Source: Candidatus Pacearchaeota archaeon CG10_big_fil_rev_8_21_14_0_10_34_76
Lineage (GTDB): Archaea > Nanobdellota > Nanobdellia > Pacearchaeales > GW2011-AR1
DNA: 61,685 nt
Reading direction: 5' to 3'
Assembly (NCBI GenBank): GCA_002763075.1
Contig: PFDB01000002.1
Location: forward strand, 128,286 to 189,970
Below are positions 16,014 to 52,008 of this stretch, in pieces (position 1 is the first letter of the stretch; each line of letters begins with the position of its first letter). Made by a program: the position numbers and the translations under genes. The notes beneath the pieces are model-generated. The model was not told where the DNA came from and did no database searches. It saw only the letters and a program-made list of their open reading frames with translations.

Positions 16014-16217
16014 ACCCCTCCGCGGTTCTAGGAGTCCGGGTAAGAAGATGACACCCCTCCGCGGTTCTAGGAGTCCGGGTAAGAAGATGACACCCCTCCG
16101 CGGTTCTAGGAGTCCGGGTAAGAAGATGACACCCCTCCGCGGTTCTAGGTATTTGCAGAGCAAGCTCCGCATACATCCAACTCTTACGAGTTATATGAGT
16201 CCTGGTAAACAGATGAC
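16014..16217. repeat. 39-bp GC-rich tandem repeat: three perfect units plus one unit interrupted by a 48-bp insert
   Basis: ACCCCTCCGCGGTTCTAGGAGTCCGGGTAAGAAGATGAC at 16014, 16053 and 16092. The fourth unit is split into 16131-16148 and a diverged 16197-16217. Confidence 0.95.
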
Positions 16218-40294: not shown

Positions 40295-40443
40295 AGGGTG
40301 TTTTTGGGTGTTTAAGTGGTGTTTAAGTGGTGTTTAAGTGTGTTTTTTTAATTACCCTCGCTGTTTAGGGGTGTTTAAACAGCTGTTTAAAATAAATCCT
40401 AGGGTGTTTTTGGGTGTTTAAGTGGTGTTTAAGTGTGTTTTTT
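40295..40443. repeat. Helically phased TGTTT / GGTGTTTAAGT iteron-like array
   Basis: Five GGTGTTTAAGT 11-mers in two duplicated blocks; 12 TGTTT cores at about 10.5-bp spacing; central palindrome TTTAAACAGCTGTTTAAA. Confidence 0.92.
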
Positions 40444-40501: not shown

Positions 40502-41140
40502 ATGTTTTGGATATTTAATGGTAAAAAAAGAGTAGAAAATCTTGAAGAAAATACTAAGAGGGGTTTTGAAGAAGTAAAAAAAGATTTTGAAGGTGTTGGT
40601 AAATGGATTAAACACCTAGACAACAGAGATAAACAGCTGTTTGATATTATTCGAGAGATAAAATCAGAATTGTCCTCGATTAATGATGAGGTTGATGGTT
40701 TGAGAGAAGCTCTTTCTTTAATGAATTTTGCCTCTGAGGGCAAACAGCTGTCCAAAAAACAAACAGGTGTTGGTAAACAGATGCCTGTTTATAGTGTTCA
40801 AGAACCTGTCCAAACACCTGTCCAAACAGGCAATTTTCACCAAATTTTGCAGAATTTGAGTGCGAACGAAAGATTGATAGTTCTTACACTTTTGAATGCG
40901 GAAGGAGATATGAAGTTAAGTTATGAGGATATTGCTAAGCTACTCGGAAAAGAGAGATCTACGATTAGAGGGCAAATAAACTCAATAAAACAGAAAAGTG
41001 AGAGTTTAGTATATGAATTAACCGAACCTAATGGGAAGAAAAGAGTGTATATCCCTGAAGAAATTAAAGAAAAACTGCTGAAATACGCGAAAGTGAGAGT
41101 TGGCAATGATAAAAAATCTGAAAAAAAGAGGAAAAAGTGA
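40502..41140 (+). CDS. Coiled-coil + Q/T-rich linker + C-terminal winged-helix protein
   Basis: Heptad-rich N-terminus; LSANERLIVLTLL...LSYEDIAKLLGKERSTIRGQINSIKQK HTH followed by a beta wing (PNGKKRVYI). Confidence 0.8.
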   Translation: MFWIFNGKKRVENLEENTKRGFEEVKKDFEGVGKWIKHLDNRDKQLFDIIREIKSELSSINDEVDGLREALSLMNFASEGKQLSKKQTGVGKQMPVYSVQEPVQTPVQTGNFHQILQNLSANERLIVLTLLNAEGDMKLSYEDIAKLLGKERSTIRGQINSIKQKSESLVYELTEPNGKKRVYIPEEIKEKLLKYAKVRVGNDKKSEKKRKK

Positions 41141-41434: not shown

Positions 41435-42181
41435 TTAGAGTGTTCTGAGTTGGTGGATTGTTTCAAGGGTGACTATTTTTCTGAGATCTTTTGAAATTGA
41501 AAGGGTTATCCTTTTGTTGTTTTCCTTAAGTTTATCGACGGGAATGCCTTTTTTAATGAGTCTTAGAACATAATCTCTGATAGAACTTTCTGTTAATTTG
41601 AGTTTTTCTGAGAGAATTGAATAATCGACGATGAATCCTTGTTCTTCTAGTTCGTATATTGTGCTAAATACTTGCATTTCTTGCGAGGTTAATCTTTTGA
41701 ATTTAAAACGAACTTCTTTCTTTAATTCGTCGAGGGATCCTAGAAGTTCTGATGCTCTGTGTATTTGGGTTAAAATGTGGGGTTTTTCTATGTTTTTTGA
41801 GGTTTTTAATGTATTCTCTTGTATTTCTGGCAGTTTTATGTGTAGTTCTGATGTGTTCAATGGTAGATTTTGAGGATTTTTCTCTGTTTTCCAGTGGAAA
41901 TAGGGGGGTTGTCTGTCTGTCTGTTGGTCTGTCTGTCTGTCTGTCGAAACCCCTTCATTTCCAGTGGAGATTGTTGAAATTTGGCTTTTTACGGCTTCTA
42001 GAGACAAATTATGTGTTGGAGTGTCTGTCTTATGTCTGTTGTCTGTCTGTTTCTTTAGTATTTCTGTCTGAATTTCATTTAATTCTTGTATAGTTCGTTT
42101 TAATTCTTGAAGTTCATAGTATAAGAAATCTATATCTTGTCTTGCATTAGCGAAGGCTTCCTTTATTTTGTCTTCCTGCAT
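41435..42181 (-). CDS. Coiled-coil + Q/T/D-rich linker + C-terminal winged-helix protein
   Basis: Heptad-rich N-terminus; LTSQEMQVFSTIY...VDYSILSEKLKLTESSIRDYVLRLIKKG HTH with wing (ENNKRITLSI). Confidence 0.8.
   Translation of the reverse strand: MQEDKIKEAFANARQDIDFLYYELQELKRTIQELNEIQTEILKKQTDNRHKTDTPTHNLSLEAVKSQISTISTGNEGVSTDRQTDQQTDRQPPYFHWKTEKNPQNLPLNTSELHIKLPEIQENTLKTSKNIEKPHILTQIHRASELLGSLDELKKEVRFKFKRLTSQEMQVFSTIYELEEQGFIVDYSILSEKLKLTESSIRDYVLRLIKKGIPVDKLKENNKRITLSISKDLRKIVTLETIHQLRTL
41889..41969. promoter_or_regulatory. Inverted pair of ORB-like boxes flanking a (GTCT)n tract, inside a CDS
   Basis: TTCCAGTGGAAATAGGGGGG (+, 41889-41908) and CTCCACTGGAAATGAAGGGGTT (-, 41948-41969) match the ORBs upstream of cdc6. 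Confidence 0.75.
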
Positions 42182-42264
42182 GGTTTTTTTACTCTTGGAG
42201 AGAATTTAAGGATTTGTGTTCAGAAGAAGTTTATATATATTAAAGATTTTTATATTGCAGAGAA

Positions 42265-42702
42265 ATGGTGACTTTTCGGGGTGTTGAAGCCTTAGATCCT
42301 GATTGTGGTAATGTCTTTATTTATAGGTTTAATGGACATCCCAATTTAAACATGGCTACATCATACAAGGGGTTACTAATTGAATCTTCTGTTTCTCCTA
42401 AAGATATAGCTGTGAATCTAATTCGGTTAGACTGTTGTTTTCCTAATGGGTTTAAGTCTCCTATGGACCGACTTGTCAATGGACCTCCAGATGGGTTAAG
42501 AGCTGATTCTTTTGATGAAATTTTTGATGAGATTGATAGAGATTCAGAATTTTATACGCCTGTCGGTAGGCATTCATTTACACCTATTCCAAAAGAAGAC
42601 TGGGAGACTCTCATCGAAAGGGTTGAATCTGAAAGATATAAAGAGTGGCTTATTAAAAAATTGGGCCCTAGGGGATTTTATTGTGAATTTTCGTTAGGAT
42701 GA
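42265..42702 (+). CDS. Hypothetical protein
   Basis: 145 aa; TATA box upstream. Confidence 0.6.
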   Translation: MVTFRGVEALDPDCGNVFIYRFNGHPNLNMATSYKGLLIESSVSPKDIAVNLIRLDCCFPNGFKSPMDRLVNGPPDGLRADSFDEIFDEIDRDSEFYTPVGRHSFTPIPKEDWETLIERVESERYKEWLIKKLGPRGFYCEFSLG

Positions 42703-42965
42703 TATTTTTTGAAGACGTCGTAGGCCTCATTTGAAAGTCTCCAGCGTTCTCTTCTAATATAATCTAATCCAGAAGAAGACTTCTTTATTTTAACTATAAG
42801 CTTGTTTTTTTCTAAGTCTTTGAGAAGGGCCTTTGTGAATTCTTCATCGCGAATGATTTGTTCTGCGATTTTTGAGGTGAAGTTAGATTCTGGAGATATG
42901 GAAAATAGGTAGTGTAGGATTTGTTCTGAGATTTTGTCTCTTTTAATTTTAGATATTGGAGGCAT
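42678..42965 (-). CDS. Small winged-helix DNA-binding protein
   Basis: EQILHYL...FTSKIAEQIIRDEEFTKALLKDLEKNKLIVKI...RWRL pattern. Confidence 0.7.
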   Translation of the reverse strand: MPPISKIKRDKISEQILHYLFSISPESNFTSKIAEQIIRDEEFTKALLKDLEKNKLIVKIKKSSSGLDYIRRERWRLSNEAYDVFKKYHPNENSQ

Positions 42966-43003
42966 TAAAATAATTGTACTGAGAAGTATTAAAGTTATTC
43001 GGT

Positions 43004-43294
43004 TTAGTAGTTAGGGTTGTGGGTGCCTGGGCCTACGTAAACTGCTAGATCTGCTGCAGTTATTGTGCATGCTCTTTCAATAGCTTCGAAGGTTGGGCGG
43101 GCTGCACGGTCAAGGTCTGTTTCTCTTTCCATTTCTTTTCTGTATTCCTGTGCTTCTGGGCTGTTTGGATTTTCTCTTATATATTTAGATTTTGCAAGTG
43201 CTTTACTAACTAACTGTGCGAGATTGGAGTCATAGCTTCTTTTACGATTTGGATCTCTTTTGTGTGTGGGTGGTAACATTGGATTATAATTCAT
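43004..43294 (-). CDS. Hypothetical protein
   Basis: 96 aa with its own TATA-like box. Confidence 0.55.
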   Translation of the reverse strand: MNYNPMLPPTHKRDPNRKRSYDSNLAQLVSKALAKSKYIRENPNSPEAQEYRKEMERETDLDRAARPTFEAIERACTITAADLAVYVGPGTHNPNY

Positions 43295-43353
43295 TAGTTA
43301 AAAAATAATCTGGAAGTTAATATAATTATCGATAGATATAAATAAATTTGATT

Positions 43354-43644
43354 ATGAAAACATATATGGAAACATCTTTTGGAAGTTTAGAGCCCCTGCT
43401 TGAGCACGAAGGAAAGCTTGTTGCTGAACTGGCTACTTTTCATAAAGAAGGAAGAAGCCATACTCATGATGATTGGGAAATTTGTTATGTTATCAAGGGG
43501 GAAGGAATAATTATTTCTGGAGAAAATAAACATGGAGTGAAGGAAGGAAGTGTTGTACTTATTCCGCCTAAAACTGGACATTGGATGATCCAATCTGGAG
43601 ATAAAGAACTTAAGATTTTGTTGGTTTATTCTAAAAATAGATGA
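43354..43644 (+). CDS. Cupin domain protein
   Basis: HTHDDWEICYVIKGEG...G..VLIPPKTGHW. Confidence 0.88.
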   Translation: MKTYMETSFGSLEPLLEHEGKLVAELATFHKEGRSHTHDDWEICYVIKGEGIIISGENKHGVKEGSVVLIPPKTGHWMIQSGDKELKILLVYSKNR

Positions 43645-43681
43645 GCGGAAGCTTTAAATGTTTAATTTTTCTTAAATTTTG

Positions 43682-43960
43682 ATGGATCCTCTTAAAAGAA
43701 CCTTTGGATATGAAGCATCTAATGAGCTTTATTTTGTGAAAGAAAGAGTTGATTTAGATAGACAGCGGAAAAGATTGTCTAAGAATATGGGAGTTGCTGC
43801 TGGAGTTTTAGTTGGGGGGCTTGTTTTAGGCCGAGTGATGGGAGTATATGATATTTACATTTCTGGAGAGTTTCCTAATGGAGGCATTGTCATAGAATGG
43901 GATCAGGATGGAAAAAGAGATTTTTTAGATAAATTAGATAAAAAACCATTTGAACGATAA
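43682..43960 (+). CDS. Hypothetical membrane-anchored protein
   Basis: One Gly-rich TM segment. Confidence 0.55.
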   Translation: MDPLKRTFGYEASNELYFVKERVDLDRQRKRLSKNMGVAAGVLVGGLVLGRVMGVYDIYISGEFPNGGIVIEWDQDGKRDFLDKLDKKPFER

Positions 43961-43988
43961 TTCTTTAAACTCGTAATTCTGAGAAATA

Positions 43989-46604
43989 ATGCTCAATATG
44001 GCTCGGGAAATAACCTTTATGGAAGAGCCTCATGCTGCTGCTGAAGTTAGAAAGATATTACATCCGCTTGTTGCTGAATGGTTTTTTAGGAAATTTGACG
44101 ACTTTTCGCTGACACAGTTGTATGGGGTGAAGACAATATCTGACAGGAAAAATATACTGATAAGTGCGCCTACTGGAGGGACTAAGACACTTACTGCCTT
44201 TCTTGGAATAATAAATTATGTTGTTGGGTTGGCCTTGAAGAATGAACTTGAAGAAAAAATTTATGCAGTTTATGTTTCACCTTTAAAGGCATTGAGCAAT
44301 GATATTTTTGTGAATTTGGAAGCTCCCCTTAGTGAAATTTACGATCTTGCAAAGGAAAGGGGGCTTGAAATGCAGAATATTAGGGTAGGTGTTAGGACTG
44401 GGGACACTACGGTTTCTGAAAGGGCGAAACATGCTAGAAAAGTTCCCCATATTTATGTCACGACCCCTGAAAGTCTTGCTATAGTACTTACTACAACTAA
44501 ATTTGTAGAGAATCTTTCTGCTTTAGAATTCATTATAGTAGATGAGATTCATGCCATGGCAAATAAAAGGGGCGTATATATGAGCTTAACATTGGAAAGA
44601 CTTTGTGAATTAAGTTTGATTGAACCAGTTCGTATTGGACTTAGTGCGACTATTGCTCCTCTTGAAGATATTGCAAGATTTTTAGTTGGAGAAGGAAGAG
44701 ATTGTCTTATAGCAAGGGTAAAATTAATGAAAAAAATTGATATTGGGTTAATATCTCCTGCAAAAGATTTGATTGAAGCAGATAGCATTCAAAGTCAAAA
44801 GGAATTGTATAAGATTTTAGATGGATTAATACAAGACCATAAAACAACTTTAATTTTCACAAATACGCGGGCTGCAACTGAAAAAATAATACATTATCTT
44901 GATTTGCATTTTCCTGGAAAATATAACGAGTTAATTGGAGCACATCATAGTTCTATGAGCAAAGAAAATAGATTTGAGATAGAAAATAAGCTTAGAAAGG
45001 GGGAATTGAAGGTTGTTGTGACCTCTACTTCGTTAGAGCTTGGCATTGATATTGGAAACGTTGATTTGGTTATATTACTGAGATCTCCGAAAGGAGTTGC
45101 TCGAGCATTACAAAGAATTGGAAGGGCAGGACATAAATTACACAGCAATCCTAAGGGAAGATTTATTGTGACTGACCGAGATGATCTTATTGAATGTGGT
45201 GTGATGATGAAAGGCATGATTGAAAATAAGATAGATAGAGTTGATATTCCTAAAAATGCCTTAGATGTCCTTGCGCAGCAGATATATGGTATGGCAATTT
45301 CTAAAATATGGAGGGCTGAGGATATGCTTAAGATGATACGAAAAAGTTATTGTTATGCTGATTTAAGTGAAGAAGATTTTTTTGCTGTTGTTTCTTATTT
45401 GGCAGGGGATTACGCCTTGGAACACAGACACGTTTATGCAAAAATCTGGTATGATGCAACTAGTGGAGAGATTGGAAAGAGAGGAAAGACTGCTAGGATA
45501 ATTTATATGACTAATATTGGGACTATACCTGAAGAGGGTTTTATTTCTGTGGTTATAAGTGCTCCAGTGGAAAAGAGGGGGCAGATTATTGGCAAGATTG
45601 ATGAAGCCTTCTTGGAGAAGATGAAAAGAGGAGATGTGTTTGTTTTAGGAGGACATAAATATCAATTTATTAGAAGTCAGGGCATGAAGGCTTATGTTAT
45701 TGCAGATGTTTCTAAAAGCCCCACCATACCTTCTTGGTTTAGTGAAATGCTTCCATTAAGTTATGATGTTGCTATTGAAATCGCTAAATTTAGAAGACTT
45801 GTTAAGGAGAAGATAGAAAATAAGAAGAAAACTTTAGATTTTATCAAGGAATATTTGTATTGTGGAGATATTGAAGCAGACCAAATGTATGATTATTTAT
45901 CTGAGCAAGCGAAATTTAGTGAAATCCCTACAGATAAAGAATTGATAGTTGAAAAATTCAAAAGTGATAAAGAATATTTGTTGTTTCATAGTATGTATGG
46001 GAGAAGAGTAAATGATGCTCTTTCTAGGGCGTATGGGTTTGCTGCTGCAAGATTGAAACATAGAGACATTGAAGTAGGAATAAATGATAACGGATTTTAT
46101 CTTGCTGGGGAGAAGCTTGATGAAAATAAAATTTTAGATTGGGTGAAGGCAAAAGACCTTGAATTAATATTAAAAGAGGCTATAGAAACAACTGATGTTT
46201 TAAGAAGAAGATTTAGGCATTGTGCTTCAAGAAGCTTGATGATATTAAGAACCTATAAAGGAAGAAGCAAGACTGTTGGAAAACAACAAATGCATTCTCA
46301 TTTCTTGTTGGCTGCTGTTAGAAAAATAAGTAATGAGTTTCCGATCTTACAAGAAGCAAGGAGAGAGGTATTTGAAGACGTGATGGATATACATCGGGCT
46401 AAGGGAATTTTGAAAGATATAGAGAATGGAAAGATAAAAGTAAAAAAAGTTAGGACGCCATTGGTTTCGCCGTTTGGATTGAATTTAATATTACAAAGTC
46501 ATGCTGATTTAATAAGAATGGAAGAAAAACTGCAATTTTTAAGGAGAATGCATAAACTTCAAATGGGCATTATTGAAAGCAAAGAAGGAAATGGGAAGGA
46601 ATAA
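43989..46604 (+). CDS. lhr: ATP-dependent helicase Lhr (archaeal Lhr-core)
   Basis: SPLKALSND, RTGDT, TTPES, DEIH, LSAT, HHSS, SLELGIDIG, QRIGRAGH, IGTIP, IPSWFSE. Confidence 0.95.
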   Translation: MLNMAREITFMEEPHAAAEVRKILHPLVAEWFFRKFDDFSLTQLYGVKTISDRKNILISAPTGGTKTLTAFLGIINYVVGLALKNELEEKIYAVYVSPLKALSNDIFVNLEAPLSEIYDLAKERGLEMQNIRVGVRTGDTTVSERAKHARKVPHIYVTTPESLAIVLTTTKFVENLSALEFIIVDEIHAMANKRGVYMSLTLERLCELSLIEPVRIGLSATIAPLEDIARFLVGEGRDCLIARVKLMKKIDIGLISPAKDLIEADSIQSQKELYKILDGLIQDHKTTLIFTNTRAATEKIIHYLDLHFPGKYNELIGAHHSSMSKENRFEIENKLRKGELKVVVTSTSLELGIDIGNVDLVILLRSPKGVARALQRIGRAGHKLHSNPKGRFIVTDRDDLIECGVMMKGMIENKIDRVDIPKNALDVLAQQIYGMAISKIWRAEDMLKMIRKSYCYADLSEEDFFAVVSYLAGDYALEHRHVYAKIWYDATSGEIGKRGKTARIIYMTNIGTIPEEGFISVVISAPVEKRGQIIGKIDEAFLEKMKRGDVFVLGGHKYQFIRSQGMKAYVIADVSKSPTIPSWFSEMLPLSYDVAIEIAKFRRLVKEKIENKKKTLDFIKEYLYCGDIEADQMYDYLSEQAKFSEIPTDKELIVEKFKSDKEYLLFHSMYGRRVNDALSRAYGFAAARLKHRDIEVGINDNGFYLAGEKLDENKILDWVKAKDLELILKEAIETTDVLRRRFRHCASRSLMILRTYKGRSKTVGKQQMHSHFLLAAVRKISNEFPILQEARREVFEDVMDIHRAKGILKDIENGKIKVKKVRTPLVSPFGLNLILQSHADLIRMEEKLQFLRRMHKLQMGIIESKEGNGKE

Positions 46605-46628
46605 AAAGCTTGAAAAATACCTTGATAT

Positions 46629-47045
46629 ATGGGAAAAGTGCTTGGTGGGTTGTTTTTTTTATTTTTTGGAGTCTTTTATTTTATTTTACATGGTGGAATA
46701 ATTTTACTTCATTCGCATTTTAAGGGTGAATTTTCAATTTTTTTTATTTTTAAAATTATAACAATTTCGTTGGGCTTTTTTGTTTTAGGTGGCATCTTGC
46801 TTTTTAAAAAGAAAGAAAATGGGTTTTTCAAGTGGGGTTTTAGAGGAATTGTTATAGTGGCTATATTGGAAATTCTGGTTGATATTTTTAGTTCGTTGGG
46901 GGGGGTTCCTTTATCACTTTCGGCCTCTTATTGGATTCCTGATTTTGTTTATATGGTTGGAGCGGTTGCAATTATAATTGGTTTATTTAAAAAAGATGAG
47001 TTACTTGACCCTAGAATTAATTTGCAAGGTTATCAAAAACCTTAA
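46629..47045 (+). CDS. Hypothetical four-TM membrane protein
   Basis: Phe/Ile-rich hydrophobic ORF between lhr and the phosphoesterase. Confidence 0.6.
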   Translation: MGKVLGGLFFLFFGVFYFILHGGIILLHSHFKGEFSIFFIFKIITISLGFFVLGGILLFKKKENGFFKWGFRGIVIVAILEILVDIFSSLGGVPLSLSASYWIPDFVYMVGAVAIIIGLFKKDELLDPRINLQGYQKP

Positions 47046-47069
47046 TTAGTCTTTTTCTTGCGAGTTTCT

Positions 47070-47819
47070 ATGGAGATTAAATATATCGGTAAAACTTTAC
47101 TTATTGAAGATTCTGGAGAAAGGGTTCTTGTTATTGGAGATCTTCATTTAGGATATGAAGAAGCAATGAGGACTAACGGAATACTTGTGCCCTCTGGAAT
47201 ATATGAAGAGATTGTGAGAGAGATAGAATTAGTTTTTGATTATTTGGAAAAAAAGAGAAAGAAAGTTGATAAGGTTGTTTTATTAGGGGATGTCAGACAT
47301 GAATTTGGAAGAATATTGAAGAGTGAATGGAAAGAAGTTTTGGATTTTTTGGATTATTTAAAAGAAAAAATCGGGAAGAAAGGAGAAATAGTTGTTGTTA
47401 AAGGAAATCACGATACCATGACTGTTAATATTGTGAAAAAGAAAAATATTGAAATTGTTGACTATTATATTTGGGGGGGCCTTGCTTTTTTACATGGAGA
47501 TAAAGATTTTGATGTAGTTTATGATAAAGATATAAAATATTGGGTTATGGGACATGCTCACCCTGCTGTTGTTTTGCAAGACAAAAAAAGTGTAAAAAAA
47601 GAAAAATATAAATGCTTTTTAGTTGGTAAGTTTAAGAGAAAGGAAATAATCGTTGTTCCAAGTTTTTTTCCTATTGTTGAGGGAAGTGATGTGACGGGTT
47701 TAAATGGGAATGAGTTAGGACTTGCTTGGGATTTTAAACTTGGGAGTTTTGAAGTGAAGATTGTTGAAGGAGAGGAAAGCTTGGAAACCTTGGATTTTGG
47801 AAGACTTAATAAATTTTAA
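47070..47819 (+). CDS. Calcineurin-like metallophosphoesterase (Lhr-associated)
   Basis: GDLHLG, LLGDVRH, KGNHD, LHG, MGHAHP, VPSF. Confidence 0.92.
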   Translation: MEIKYIGKTLLIEDSGERVLVIGDLHLGYEEAMRTNGILVPSGIYEEIVREIELVFDYLEKKRKKVDKVVLLGDVRHEFGRILKSEWKEVLDFLDYLKEKIGKKGEIVVVKGNHDTMTVNIVKKKNIEIVDYYIWGGLAFLHGDKDFDVVYDKDIKYWVMGHAHPAVVLQDKKSVKKEKYKCFLVGKFKRKEIIVVPSFFPIVEGSDVTGLNGNELGLAWDFKLGSFEVKIVEGEESLETLDFGRLNKF

Positions 47820-47824
47820 GTAAA

Positions 47825-48232
47825 TTATTTTGCTGGCTTTTGAATTTTAGGTAAACTAATATGAAGGGGGAGTCCTAAATCTTCTTCCATTTGGAGGGCC
47901 TTAAGAGAACATTTATTTAAGATTATATTAAAAACGGGCACCTTTAGTTCGTCATTCATTTTTTTCTTTTTCCAGTCTTTTATTGTTTTGTCTAAAATGT
48001 CTTCCGTTGTGCTTAGTAATAAAATTCCTTCAAAGGTTAGTTCTGCTTGCTTTGTTTCATATTCAATAGAAAATTTGAAAGATATTTTTAATATTTTAGA
48101 ATCCTTCATTATTTCAATGTTGTCTTTTTCTATATTTGTAAATTCAATATTTGTGGAAATTTTTTCTATTTTTTCTAACTTAATATTTCTTTTTGCAGAG
48201 ACATTTGTGAAATTAATACCTAAAAGTTTCAT
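47825..48232 (-). CDS. Hypothetical protein (SecB-like beta/alpha pattern)
   Basis: 135 aa with alternating beta-strand pattern and C-terminal LGLPLHISLP. Confidence 0.6.
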   Translation of the reverse strand: MKLLGINFTNVSAKRNIKLEKIEKISTNIEFTNIEKDNIEIMKDSKILKISFKFSIEYETKQAELTFEGILLLSTTEDILDKTIKDWKKKKMNDELKVPVFNIILNKCSLKALQMEEDLGLPLHISLPKIQKPAK

Positions 48233-48285
48233 GTTTAAGGGGATTTTAAATTCTTTTTAAAGTTTTGTATTATTTAGTTGGAAAG

Positions 48286-48546
48286 TTATAAAAGATCTTC
48301 TTCAGAAACAACTACGAAATCGCCAATAGCTATAATTGAATTATATGGGACTATTGGTTCTTTTTGAGAAGAAATTTCTAAGTTTAAATTTCTCGTGTAT
48401 GGGGTCGCTTCCTTTAATATAATCTGAATTAGTTCTCCTGTTCTTGTTTCAAAAGAAATATCCTTTACTATTCCTAGTCTTTTTCCTTCTTTTGTTACAA
48501 CAAGCCTGCCAACAATGTCTTTTAAGAGCTTTTTATCTAGTGCCAT
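48286..48546 (-). CDS. PRC-barrel domain protein
   Basis: IVGRLVVTKEGKRLGIVKDISFETRTGEL...VPYNSIIAIGDFVVV. Confidence 0.9.
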   Translation of the reverse strand: MALDKKLLKDIVGRLVVTKEGKRLGIVKDISFETRTGELIQIILKEATPYTRNLNLEISSQKEPIVPYNSIIAIGDFVVVSEEDLL

Positions 48547-48699
48547 TGTGGAGATAACTTTGAGAAGTATATAAAGTTTTTCGTGGTCTGTTGTGCTATT
48601 TTAAAGGATTTAATGACAAAGATTTCTTAAATAAATAAGGGATGCAAGTGGAACTTCTTAGGGCAATACATTAAGGTATATGAAAATTAATTGAATTGA

Positions 48700-49180
48700 A
48701 TTGTTGGCACCCTCACCCTATCATTTCCACTGGAAAAATCATAAAGGTTTAAATATAGAGGAGGAAATTCATTTCTTCTTCTTTTCTTTTATAAATATAT
48801 ATATATTATATTATATATATTATATTATTAATATTTAAATAGTATATATTAAAACAAAGCATATCAAAGTATTATATATTAAAATGACCAATATTAAAAT
48901 CCTATGACTTTTGATATTAATAGTTCTTTAATCTCTTATTTTAAAATTTTAAATATTAAACTTTTATAGCATTTCATTAAATGATTTATTTACTCTATTT
49001 AACATTTTTATTAAGATTTTAGTGTGGTTGTTCGTTAATGTTCGTTTAACGCAACAATAATATATTTAATTAAACAGAGACTCCAGTGGAAACGGGGGTG
49101 TGTGTGTTTTTAATAAAATATGACTTTTTTTATAATTTTTCCTCCTGATTTAAATATTTCCATTTGAAATAAAGGTTAAA
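48700..49180. other. oriC: Replication origin oriC: ORBs flanking an AT-rich unwinding element
   Basis: 685-bp non-coding gap upstream of cdc6. ORBs TCCAGTGGAAATGATAGGG (-, about 48716-48734), CTCCAGTGGAAACGGGGG (+, 49081-49098) and a weaker TTCCATTTGAAATAAAGG (49158-49175). Pure A/T tract at about 48790-48840. Confidence 0.88.
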
Positions 49181-49231: not shown

Positions 49232-50440
49232 ATGACGGTCAAATTAAATAAAATATTCGATTCTATAGCTGGAAATATAATTTTTCGTGATAAAAGTGTT
49301 TTGCAAATAAACCATACGCCTGGATCGATACCACATAGAGATGAACAAATCGAAGCAGTTGCGTCTATATTGGCGCCTTCGCTAAGGGGAGATAGAGTAA
49401 GTAATTTATTTGTTTATGGAAAGACTGGAACTGGAAAGACACTATGTGTGCAATATGTAACAAATGAAATAAGCAAAAGGGTAAAGGAAACCGGAGAGGA
49501 CGTCTTAAAGGTAATATATGTTAATTGTAAGTTGAAAAAGGTAGCTGATACAGAATATAGGATATTAGCTGAAATAATAAATCGACTAGGGGGAAGTGTC
49601 CCAGCGACAGGCCTTCCCACAGATAGCGTTTATAATAAGTTTATTGAATTAATTGATGGGAAGAAACAAGTAATATTAATTGTTTTGGATGAAATAGACC
49701 AGGCTGTAAAGAAAATATCTGATAGTTTTCTCTATACCCTAACAAGATTGAATTCGGAGCTGAAAAATGCACAAATAAGTATTGTCGGAATAAGTAACAG
49801 CTTAACATTTATGGATGAACTAGATCCAAGAGTTAGAAGTTCGCTTGGAGAGGAAGAACTTGTATTTCCTCCATATAATGCATTACAATTGCAAGAAATA
49901 TTAAAGAAAAGAGCAAGTGAGGCCTTTAATGAAGGCATTTTAAGTGAGGGGGTTATAGCAAAGTGTGCTGCCTTTGCAGCAAGAGAACATGGGGATGCAA
50001 GAAGAGCTCTTGATTTGTTGAGGGTTGCTGGAGAATTAGCAGAAAGGTCGGGAATAAAAAAATTGGATGTTGTTAGAATCGACGAAGCAAATAGTAAAAT
50101 AGAAAAAGATAAAATGCTAGATATTATAGAAAGTGAGCCTAAACAGTTTCAACTTGTACTCTTTGCTATTATGAGTCTGAGCCAAGATGAAAAAATGAAT
50201 AAGATCTTTACTGGAGATATTTATAATAAATATGAAGAAATATGCAGAAAGACAAAGAACGAGGCACTTACACAAAGGAGAGTGTCAGATATCGTTGCTG
50301 AGTTTGATATGTTAGGATTAATAAATGCTAAGGTGGTTAGCAAGGGAAGACAAGGACGAACGAGAGAAATAAAATTGATGCTTCCTGAAAATGTTCGCAA
50401 TAAGGCAAGAGAAATATTGATAGAATCATTGAATTTATGA
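49232..50440 (+). CDS. cdc6: Orc1/Cdc6 replication initiator
   Basis: IPHRDEQI, YGKTGTGKT, VLDEID, LDPRVRSSL, FPPYNA, HGDARRALDLLR, C-terminal winged helix. Confidence 0.97.
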   Translation: MTVKLNKIFDSIAGNIIFRDKSVLQINHTPGSIPHRDEQIEAVASILAPSLRGDRVSNLFVYGKTGTGKTLCVQYVTNEISKRVKETGEDVLKVIYVNCKLKKVADTEYRILAEIINRLGGSVPATGLPTDSVYNKFIELIDGKKQVILIVLDEIDQAVKKISDSFLYTLTRLNSELKNAQISIVGISNSLTFMDELDPRVRSSLGEEELVFPPYNALQLQEILKKRASEAFNEGILSEGVIAKCAAFAAREHGDARRALDLLRVAGELAERSGIKKLDVVRIDEANSKIEKDKMLDIIESEPKQFQLVLFAIMSLSQDEKMNKIFTGDIYNKYEEICRKTKNEALTQRRVSDIVAEFDMLGLINAKVVSKGRQGRTREIKLMLPENVRNKAREILIESLNL

Positions 50441-52008
50441 ATCCAAAAATATTAAGTTTAATAAGAGAAAAAGGAATCTTACTAGAGAAGGATCTTTTTG
50501 AGTTGTTAAAGGAATTTGATGATGTAAAACTCGCAGGAGATTTTTTAGAGGGGCTTGAAAGTGTTTCGGGACAAAAAATTATTACTACTTCAAGTCTGAA
50601 TAAGAATTTAAACTATGTTCAAGAAATTGTAAAAGAACTTCCTGGAGAAATGAAGGGGCTTGTTGAAAGGACATTTTTTAAATTGGGACTTAGCCTAGAG
50701 ATAAAAAAAGAGATTGAAATAAAGTCTGGTGAAAATGTTGAGAAAAAAAACAATAATTATCAAATATTCTACGCAGATACAAAGAATGAAAAGAAAATTA
50801 ATGTTCAAGATTTTGTAGGACATTTTAGAGCGAGATACCACCAACTTCAAGGAATCTTAATGGATAGACCAGAGTTGCAAAATTTAATTTCTATAAATAA
50901 AATATCAAGGGAAAGAAATAGTTTTAATATTATAGGAATTGTTTCGGAAAAGCGCAAAACTAAGAATGGAAATCTCATAGTCAAATTTGAGGATATGACT
51001 GGGTCTATAAGTGCCCTCTTTAAAAAAGATGGAGATTGTTTTGTGACGGCAGAAGAACTACAAATGGATGATGTGGTGGCTGTCAAGGCATCTGGAAACA
51101 ATGAAATGATATTCGGACACGAAATAATTTTTCCTGATGTTTTTAAGGATAAAGTAAAATTTGATGAAGAGGTGTGTATTGGATTTATATCTGATGTACA
51201 TACTGGAAGCGCCAAGCACTTGGGTGAGGAATTCAAGAGGTTTTTAGAATGGATAAAAAGCGATGATGAGTTGGCTAAAAAAATAAAATATCTTTTTTTT
51301 GTAGGAGATAATGTGGATGGGGTTGGTGTTTTTCCAGGCCAAGAATCTCTTTTAAAACTTACAAGTCTAAAAGAACAATATAATCTTCTTGCCTCATACC
51401 TTAAAGAAATCCCTTCGGATATTACAATGTTCATGTGTCCTGGACAACACGACTCTGTAAGGGTTCCAGAACCCCAACCAGTCATAGACAACTATTATGG
51501 GGAAGCACTATATGAAATTCCTAATCTTGTTTTGGTCTCAAATCCTTCTACCATAAAGATTTTAGAGAAAGATAAGGTGTTTAAGGTATTGATGTACCAT
51601 GGGGCGAGTATTCACACATTTATTAATGAGATAACTGAATTGAGGATGTTAAAAGCACACAAATGCCCTGCAAAGGCCGTTAAACATATGCTGAAGAGGA
51701 GGCATCTGGCTCCAATGCATGGAGTTTCCACATCTATTGTTTATGTTCCAAACGCAAAGAAAGACCCATTGGTAATAAGTGAAGCCCCAGATGTTCTTTG
51801 TACTGGAGAGGTGCATAGATTAGACATAGAAAATTATCATGGTGTTTTAATAATCACAGGAAGCTGTTGGCAGGCACAAACAGATTTTGAAGAGAAGGTT
51901 GGGAATATTCCAGACCCTTGCAAGGTGCCAGTGTTAAACCTGAAAACTAGGGAATTGAAAATATTAGACTTTACAGGAAATAGTGAGGAAAATAAAAATG
52001 GACATTGA
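50437..52008 (+). CDS. polB: DNA polymerase D small subunit DP1
   Basis: OB fold (EDMTG), SDVHTGS, GDNVDGVG, YHG, RRHLAP, CWQAQTDF. Confidence 0.93.
   Translation: MNPKILSLIREKGILLEKDLFELLKEFDDVKLAGDFLEGLESVSGQKIITTSSLNKNLNYVQEIVKELPGEMKGLVERTFFKLGLSLEIKKEIEIKSGENVEKKNNNYQIFYADTKNEKKINVQDFVGHFRARYHQLQGILMDRPELQNLISINKISRERNSFNIIGIVSEKRKTKNGNLIVKFEDMTGSISALFKKDGDCFVTAEELQMDDVVAVKASGNNEMIFGHEIIFPDVFKDKVKFDEEVCIGFISDVHTGSAKHLGEEFKRFLEWIKSDDELAKKIKYLFFVGDNVDGVGVFPGQESLLKLTSLKEQYNLLASYLKEIPSDITMFMCPGQHDSVRVPEPQPVIDNYYGEALYEIPNLVLVSNPSTIKILEKDKVFKVLMYHGASIHTFINEITELRMLKAHKCPAKAVKHMLKRRHLAPMHGVSTSIVYVPNAKKDPLVISEAPDVLCTGEVHRLDIENYHGVLIITGSCWQAQTDFEEKVGNIPDPCKVPVLNLKTRELKILDFTGNSEENKNGH

Follow-up and report, generated by a model that had tools for sequence, protein, structure and literature searches.

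Introduction

The sole published case of origin recognition boxes (ORBs) inside a protein-coding gene comes from Thermococcales, where ORB and mini-ORB elements clustered at dp1 are bound by Cdc6/Orc1 both in vivo and in vitro (PMC1904270, Matsunaga et al. 2007). In the same organisms, a single full ORB showed high-affinity binding and a mini-ORB did not (PMC1904270). ORBs bind monomers with a defined polarity (PMC12141716), and Orc1 proteins of Sulfolobus also occupy non-origin sites, with an effect on transcription (PMC3607249). Here, we describe a candidate intragenic ORB from a different phylum. The DNA analyzed, hereafter the window, is a stretch of 61,685 nucleotides (nt) from contig PFDB01000002.1 (positions 128,286 to 189,970, forward strand) of Candidatus Pacearchaeota archaeon CG10_big_fil_rev_8_21_14_0_10_34_76 (Nanobdellota; genome G000 below). 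The element is a full box, ORB1, accompanied in this genus by a second one, ORB2. Both lie in the linker of a gene for a winged helix-turn-helix (wHTH) protein of 248 amino acids (aa), the host gene, 6.8-7.3 kb from the predicted origin beside orc1/cdc6 (cdc6).

Like the ORB3/mini-ORB cluster at dp1 of Pyrococcus and Thermococcus, which is present order-wide, the boxes described here stand in a coding gene a few kilobases from oriC and cdc6. The ORB1 and ORB2 oligonucleotides of the Thermococcales study moreover contain the same TCCAGTGGA core, on the other strand and with a C-run (a G-run on the complement) nearby (PMC1904270). However, the host in our case is a coiled-coil/MarR-like gene on the cdc6-divergent side, whereas dp1 lies downstream of cdc6, and the phylum differs (DPANN). 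In place of a mini-ORB cluster we find one invariant full box, a predicted site, with occasional tandem or inverted extras; it falls in a disordered linker and sets a family-wide peptide signature. Since host gene and side both differ from dp1, we regard the locus as an analogue and not as the same locus. In the window scan, no ORB core was found in dp1 itself (50437..52008). Intragenic ORBs bound by Cdc6/Orc1 are already known from Thermococcales, and what appears to be new here is the gene family and the phylum, to which the published case would be widened.

Other described systems share single traits with the locus. The canonical ORBs of Sulfolobus (ORB1-3 of oriC1, PMC12141716) have the same box anatomy and, presumably, the same monomeric polar binding, but the intragenic boxes are part of a coding sequence, flank no AT-rich DNA and form a pair of reversed polarity. 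At oriC3 of Sulfolobus, the winged-helix gene whiP stands beside an origin, with protein-DNA contacts within its own open reading frame (ORF) (PMC3607249). WhiP, however, is a Cdt1-like initiator binding its own gene, whereas our locus combines a box of Orc1 type with a MarR-like protein. MarR-family regulators (5h3r, 4yif, 3bpx) are fold matches of residues ~135-247; the host protein differs from them in its long N-terminal helix, in an 89-residue disordered linker that carries DNA signals and in matching no sequence family over cut-off.

In bacteria, parS lies within spo0J of Bacillus subtilis, and datA of E. coli titrates the initiator. Both are protein-binding sites near the origin, as here, but they are bacterial and involve unrelated proteins, so that the analogy is functional only. 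DPANN organisms have one Orc1/Cdc6 and very little non-coding DNA, and we know of no experimental study of replication control in these archaea. A full-text literature search brought up no account of ORBs in Nanoarchaeota/Nanobdellota, nor of any ORB in this gene family, and the main text, without supplements, of a 2026 Nanobdellota preprint (10.64898/2026.05.13.725050) contains no word beginning 'ORB'.

Results

Codon-Level Conservation of ORB1

Matches to the host gene came from 35 of the 41 related genomes, and none of the 11 genomes with at least 90% completeness lacked one. We kept the 31 complete copies, which represent nine families of the order and share 27-73% amino-acid identity with the query. 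The codon string TCC ANN GGA AAY NNN GGG GTT was found in frame 0 of the linker in every one of them. Serine was encoded by TCC (31/31), the two glycines by GGA (31/31) and GGG (31/31), and valine by GTT (30/30); asparagine was AAT in 28 copies and AAC in three, and the threonine next to the box was always ACA (27/27). Codons of wHTH-domain positions conserved to the same degree varied freely in the same sequences: Ser173 was written as TCA (16), AGC (3), TCC (2), TCG (2), TCT (2) or AGT (1), Gly212 as GGA (13), GGC (10), GGG (4) or GGT (1), and the leucine columns used five to six codons.

Residue changes within the box were confined to the degenerate positions of an ORB, namely the dyad center (T/S/N/K/I) and the 3-nt spacer (E/R/G/Q/D/K). 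Per base, the orthologues read TCCA..GGAAAT...GGGGTT followed by yCrrCA, with GGGGTT invariant across all 31 and with variable flanks. Because selection on a peptide cannot freeze synonymous positions, the selection must act on nucleic acid. ORB1 thus appears to be a genuine DNA element, kept by selection on the DNA. The counts overstate independence, as genomes of one order are related, but this kinship is controlled for by the free variation of the wHTH-domain codons. The first-pass annotation of the window had read the box as dual-coding DNA and had set against this a conserved STGNEG peptide in freely varying synonymous codons; the orthologues bear out the former and display the opposite of the latter.

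Four copies were set aside as incomplete. One of these shows the box (G029), one keeps its 3' half at a contig end (G015), one is masked (G011) and one has a one-base variant (G005). The peptide follows the DNA: S.GN.GV was present in 115 of the 120 best homologues and S.GN.G[VA] in 135 of 150 representatives, and many of the 15 representatives without it read S.RN.GV, which is one base change in the box.

Distribution of the Box Across Genomes

Scanning 41 whole genomes with the pattern TCCANNGGAAAYNNNGGGGTT gave 37 matches in 32 genomes, compared to zero for the reversed control. Of these matches, 35 were in the host gene, one was located 130 nt upstream of cdc6 (G037) and one was in G018, which makes the pattern nearly unique in each genome. 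The nine genomes without a match comprised six in which no host gene was found and the masked, truncated and one-base variant copies mentioned above (G011, G015 and G005). The G018 match outside the host gene (C2:59176-59196) is a full 21-nt pattern ~3.7 kb from cdc6 on its downstream side, and may parallel the dp1 arrangement of Thermococcales.

Among 151 genomes sampled across the class, 26 had a match (28 matches in all), and the control again had none. We examined 23 of these 28 loci, leaving out those of G000, G002 and G027 as already known. All 14 examined loci of the same family were in the host gene, one of them cut by a contig end. Among the nine loci of other orders, three were located 134-300 nt upstream of cdc6 (G048, G051 and G054), four were in the linker of coiled-coil/linker/winged-helix genes with different short repeats after the box (G125, G161, G101 and G090), and two were in short open frames of 25 and 31 codons, where cdc6 was absent from the surrounding 1.5 kb. 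As the same 21-nt pattern occurs both upstream of cdc6 and in the host gene, it is the origin-type box of this class. Judged by sequence, this box is written into the host-gene family in more than one order.

Some genomes carry extra copies. A tandem direct copy is present 43 nt upstream of ORB1 in G018, G019, G147 and G106. In the last of these (L123, 1719-1790), the exact pattern is missing and each of the two tandem copies has one flaw: one combines a perfect core with a weakened G-string, the other a perfect G-string with one core change.

The Box Pair in This Genus

The coordinates of the boxes and of the features around them are given in Table 1. ORB1 and ORB2 both contain the exact core TCCAnnGGAAA, a mini-ORB-type dyad. 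The G-string lies on one side of the core only, which gives each box a polarity: GGGGTT lies 4 nt past GGAAA in ORB1, and GGGGGGTT lies 2 nt past GGAAA in ORB2. The two inverted boxes are 58 bp apart and 81% complementary across 21 nt.

Table 1. Coordinates of the host gene, its boxes and repeats, and the cdc6-side origin (positions in the window).
Feature	Positions	Strand	Description
Host gene, 248 aa	41435..42181	-	Long N-terminal helix 2-45; disordered linker 46-134; helix and MarR-like winged helix 135-247
ORB1	41948..41969	-	CTCCACTGGAAATGAAGGGGTT, read 41969-41948; full origin recognition box on the host-gene sense strand; codes I71-V78 (ISTGNEGV)
ORB2	41889..41910	+	TTCCAGTGGAAATAGGGGGGTT; full box, antisense to the host gene, convergent with ORB1; codes P92-K98 (PPYFHWK)
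(GTCT)n / (ACAG)n tract between ORB1 and ORB2	41910..41945	.	Reads TDRQTDQQTDRQ in the protein
Degenerate second GTCT-type tract, 5' of ORB1 in gene sense	42022..42050	.	
TTAAAACGAACT word, antisense copy	41703..41714	+	Perfect 12-nt inverted repeat with 42092-42103
TTAAAACGAACT word, sense copy	42092..42103	-	Codes LKRT in the N-terminal helix
Left ORB of the cdc6-side origin	48708..48736 (core 48724-48736)	-	Core adjoins the AT-rich stretch; G-rich tail GGGTGAGGGTG directed away
Candidate unwinding element, AT-rich, ~340 nt	48740..49080	.	TA-rich tandem repeats at 48790-48851
Right ORB of the cdc6-side origin	49081..49099 (core 49082-49092)	+	CTCCAGTGGAAACGGGGGT; G-string directed to cdc6
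orc1/cdc6	49232..50440	+	Cdc6_C (1.8e-26), lid, AAA; followed by the PolD small and large subunit genes

This geometry, two full boxes facing each other with inward G-strings around GTCT repeats in the linker of the wHTH protein, agrees with what the first-pass annotation had described, including the peptides ISTGNEGV and PPYFHWK and the core common to the ORBs beside cdc6. Its remark that the spacer is not AT-rich, and thus unlikely to be an unwinding element, holds as well: the 38 nt from 41910 to 41947 have 50% G+C and contain no AT-rich element. The description is refined in one respect: of the two boxes, only the ISTGNEGV box is universal (31/31), and the PPYFHWK box is lineage-restricted (6/31). 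The latter count takes in boxes that lie downstream of the repeats, converge on ORB1 from the antisense strand, keep the full G-string and have no more than one mismatch in the core. ORB2 was perfect in G000 and G002 and had one core mismatch in G001, G006, G033 and G038, at an outer spacing to ORB1 of 77-87 nt; with codon shuffling, 0.012 per gene would be expected. The tandem and inverted extras share their spacings, which points to an ancestral cluster with as many as three boxes; ORB1 alone would be indispensable.

The spacer holds a period-4 repeat (TGTC, 9.0 copies as assembled). Contigs of four public short-read runs break within 41903-41951, and the three runs other than the probable source have no coverage of the boxes, so that these runs are uninformative on tract length and population variation; none of the public runs listed for this sequence was of RNA. 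The interrupted structure of the tract is identical in the same-genus genome G002. In a scan of the whole assembly, matches to ACAGACAGAC were limited to the host gene and one site on C10. Most orthologues have ACAG-type repeats in the 3' flank of ORB1, with other short repeats in other families and orders.

The core is rare in the assembly, which comprises 914 kb in 21 contigs. TCCASTGGAAA occurs exactly at six sites, five of which fall in the 7.2-kb zone 41888-49092 and have a G-run; the sixth, on C11, has none. Similarly, TCCA..GGAAA with GGGG within 1-7 nt occurs four times, always in this zone. Given this clustering of core plus G-run sites, the intragenic box pair is real and not a product of chance.

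The zone also includes a third full box in coding DNA, TCCAGTGGAAAAGAGGGGGC at 45563-45582 (+), located within 43989..46604, the gene for an Lhr-type helicase. G002 has an identical copy, whereas no box stands at the homologous site of the same-genus genome G001. We therefore regard it as recent or fortuitous, and it was rejected as part of a conserved element.

The cdc6-Side Origin and Synteny of the Host Gene

The assembly contains one gene with a Cdc6_C domain, the orc1/cdc6 gene of Table 1. The core TCCA(G/C)TGGAAA is common to ORB1, ORB2 and both boxes located 150-520 nt upstream of this gene, and G+C is 0.28 at positions 47001-49000. In the cdc6-side origin, cores are turned toward the AT-rich DNA and G-rich tails away from it, whereas the intragenic pair is arranged the other way round.

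The host gene was divergent from cdc6 in all 24 loci with both genes, at a distance of 1.4-14.5 kb. An ORB core was found within the host gene in all 24, and on the cdc6 strand at most ~210 nt upstream of cdc6 in 16. As ORB1 lies on the sense strand of the host gene, its core is always on the origin-facing side and its G-string on the far side, as in the left origin box. The box follows the gene and not the AT-rich element, which favors a role linked to the gene or the origin neighborhood over one in unwinding.

In six compact genomes (G003, G004, G010, G012, G014 and G022; loci L050, L051 and L053-L056), the host gene is the last of four co-directional genes that begin at the origin: an 85-aa gene, a ~137-aa gene, a ~90-aa gene and the host gene. 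Beyond this operon lies a convergent helix-turn-helix (HTH) gene with its own repeat linker. The counterparts in G000 are, in the same order, 48286..48546 (-), 47825..48232 (-), 42678..42965 (-), the host gene and 40502..41140 (+). In the genus of G000, the operon is split by ~5 kb of inserted genes, including those for the Lhr-type helicase and a metallophosphoesterase.

GC skew, which the first-pass annotation had recommended as a check, was computed but did not place the origin. Skew is positive over nearly all 190 kb of contig C15, both flanks of cdc6 included, and each of the 21 contigs of G000 has mostly one sign regardless of gene strand, with a mean absolute skew of 0.10-0.27 in all but two contigs. 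In G000, where each contig is thus mostly one-signed, the sign does not switch at the host gene or at cdc6, and there was no switch in 80-kb stretches of G004, G026, G027, G034 and G036 with cdc6 mid-contig, where skew is weaker. GC skew in these genomes is uninformative on the origin position, for or against either site.

The Host Protein

An AlphaFold2 model of the host protein built from 74 homologues had a mean predicted local distance difference test (pLDDT) score of 76.9. Residues 46-134 showed no secondary structure (pLDDT 47-60), so that both boxes fall in a linker predicted to be disordered, which can therefore tolerate an imposed peptide. The best fold matches were MarR-family proteins (E-values from 2.3e-4 to 3e-3, target template modeling scores of 0.43-0.65). 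No Pfam or NCBIfam family scored over its cut-off, the best Pfam hit reaching 17.6 bits compared to a cut-off of 26. The host-gene family comprises 2166 clusters at 90% identity and 907 representatives at 50%. The few named clusters, from Nanoarchaeota/Pacearchaeota, are called hypothetical protein, MarR-type or transcriptional regulator, or bear an evidently mistaken name. A scan for bacterial-type promoters and terminators, which does not cover archaeal promoters, found nothing above shuffled sequences.

Words Bracketing the Boxes

Inverted TTAAAACGAAC(T) words bracket ORB1 and ORB2, with 377 nt between the arms. The word TTAAAACGAACT has four matches in the assembly, two of them in the host gene and one in oriC. 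Across the 24 loci (229.5 kb), TTAAAACGAAC has 13 exact matches, 12 of which are within 500 nt of the host gene, compared to a shuffle mean of 0.35. Its position in the protein varies, and some copies are located just outside the host gene. The word is a candidate site for the host gene's own product. A related tandem copy, TTAAA(A)CGAAC, is present beside the right origin box at 49030-49052 in G000 only. With the pattern used, it was not found adjoining cdc6 in G001 or G002, and we claim no origin role for it.

Proposed Role of ORB1

ORB1, together with ORB2 in this genus, is probably an accessory, non-initiating Orc1/Cdc6 site in coding DNA. It would most likely bind a monomer of the single Orc1/Cdc6 of the genome, with the polarity of the left cdc6-side box. 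Binding would couple the last gene of the cdc6-divergent operon to Orc1 occupancy, either through a transcription block of that gene or through bridging to Orc1 at the origin. Such a coupling is suggested by ORB1 staying with the host gene while the distance to the origin ranges between 1.4 and 14.5 kb among loci. We infer both Orc1/Cdc6 as the binder and the effect of binding, which could be a transcription block, origin bridging or initiator titration.

In published structures, the winged helix sits on the dyad of an ORB and the ATPase side on the G-string. If this orientation holds here, two monomers on the pair of G000 would have their ATPase sides facing, the reverse of the loading geometry at an origin. 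ORB1 is the best-conserved Orc1-type box of each genome and stands outside the recognizable origin, frozen in a coding frame, and the host gene is a candidate partner for origin function. ORB1 also exemplifies a DNA signal that dictates a family-wide 'protein motif' (STGNxGV, in about nine-tenths of the inspected homologues), a caution for annotation based on motifs.

Several points weigh against this reading. Compared with the intragenic box, the G-tails of most cdc6-side boxes in relatives are weaker (GGTGT, GGTCTGT). By sequence, the intragenic box is thus the best ORB of the genome and better than most of those boxes, which would be odd for an accessory site. The dyad centers of the intragenic and origin boxes vary freely and independently within genomes; as they do not co-vary, they offer no covariation evidence for a shared binder. 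The constant orientation may reflect inherited synteny rather than selection, and the transcription block is purely conjectural. Finally, the invariant block permits a small RNA hairpin (UUUCC-ANN-GGAAA).

A broader proposal makes the linker a composite control element, in which the invariant Orc1/Cdc6 box and a lineage-specific repeat array are bracketed by the wHTH protein's own TTAAAACGAAC sites. Orc1/Cdc6 and the coiled-coil wHTH protein would then meet on the DNA of the host gene in a DPANN-specific initiation circuit, and initiator occupancy would set the level of the wHTH protein, a so far undescribed accessory factor of the origin with a role like that of UBP in Sulfolobus. An ancestral three-box cluster would have left the inverted pair of this genus as its remnant. 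We hold this proposal to be doubtful.

Alternative Explanations

The binder of the box might instead be the coiled-coil/MarR-like protein itself, occupying the box, or the box and the repeats, in its own gene for autoregulation or origin-proximal anchoring. A winged helix with a dimerizing helix is predicted to bind DNA, and the repeats after the box change by lineage (ACAG, NQSI-coding, GYSLP-coding and THSL-coding), as expected of co-evolution with a binder. The clustering of TTAAAACGAAC on the host gene points in the same direction, as does the chromatin immunoprecipitation signal of WhiP, which peaks within the whiP ORF in Sulfolobus (PMC3607249). However, the box is invariant while the protein diverges to ~28% identity, and it matches the pan-archaeal Orc1 box, G-string spacing included. 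The identical 21-nt pattern also occurs just upstream of cdc6 in G037, G048, G051 and G054, far from the host gene. The lineage-specific repeats are a better candidate for a self-site than the box, and we find it unlikely that the protein binds the latter. An initiator sink comparable to datA would titrate Orc1/Cdc6 in trans after early duplication instead of acting in cis on the gene. Every locus with both genes does have a high-grade box less than 15 kb from the origin, and the convergent pair doubles the capacity in this genus. Yet a sink of one or two monomer sites would be very small, and titration leaves it unexplained that the box occupies one gene, one frame and one orientation in all genomes, which renders a sink quite improbable.

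The first-pass annotation had also named a satellite origin element among the possible roles. Two inverted full boxes 58 bp apart could mark the unwinding site of a second replication origin, since archaeal origins are built from inverted ORBs (PMC12141716). The intragenic pair nevertheless departs from the oriC arrangement of inverted ORBs with cores toward an AT-rich element: its spacer lacks such an element, its G-strings point inward, opposite to the cdc6-side origin, and 25 of 31 orthologues have no second box. GC skew does not change at the gene either, although skew is uninformative in these genomes. We therefore disfavor a satellite origin as very improbable. We give hardly more credence to a signal at the RNA level, be it an mRNA hairpin at the dyad or, in this genus, a long hairpin of both boxes. 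For the sense RNA of 41880-41980, the predicted folding energy is -22.9 kcal/mol (z = -3.06; one of 200 shuffles did as well), and a 5-bp stem can form at the dyad, with the variable bases in its 3-nt loop. However, the long hairpin requires ORB2 as a partner and so cannot explain ORB1 in the 25 genes without it, the invariant GGGGTT has no conserved partner, and the same pattern is found in non-coding DNA upstream of cdc6. The sole Rfam match, to mir-553, was sub-threshold (20.6 bits, where the gathering score is 82; E = 0.53) and was rejected as reflecting the inverted repeat. Finally, it is extremely improbable that the locus is explained by a protein motif alone, or by the tetranucleotide tract acting as a phase-variation switch. 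The widespread S.GN.GV peptide fits the former, but the frozen synonymous positions contradict it. A (GTCT)9 tract in a reading frame is slippage-prone in principle, but all 31 complete genes are open through the tract, with no frame-shifting change in repeat number that would mark a phase-variable contingency locus, and the same interrupted tract is shared by G000 and G002.

Other Repeats in the Window

The convergent neighbor of the host gene (40502..41140) encodes a 212-aa, HTH_36-like protein with the same coiled-coil/repeat-linker/HTH plan and is conserved in relatives. An 11-nt tandem repeat, GGTGTTTAAGT (~3.6 copies), lies just upstream of it; a second array is close by, and the linker contains a 12-nt repeat (40307-40345, 40401-40440 and 40804-40828). 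Elsewhere in the window, positions 16014-16149 hold a perfect 39-nt tandem repeat (3.5 copies, 100% identity) with a G+C content far over the local average.

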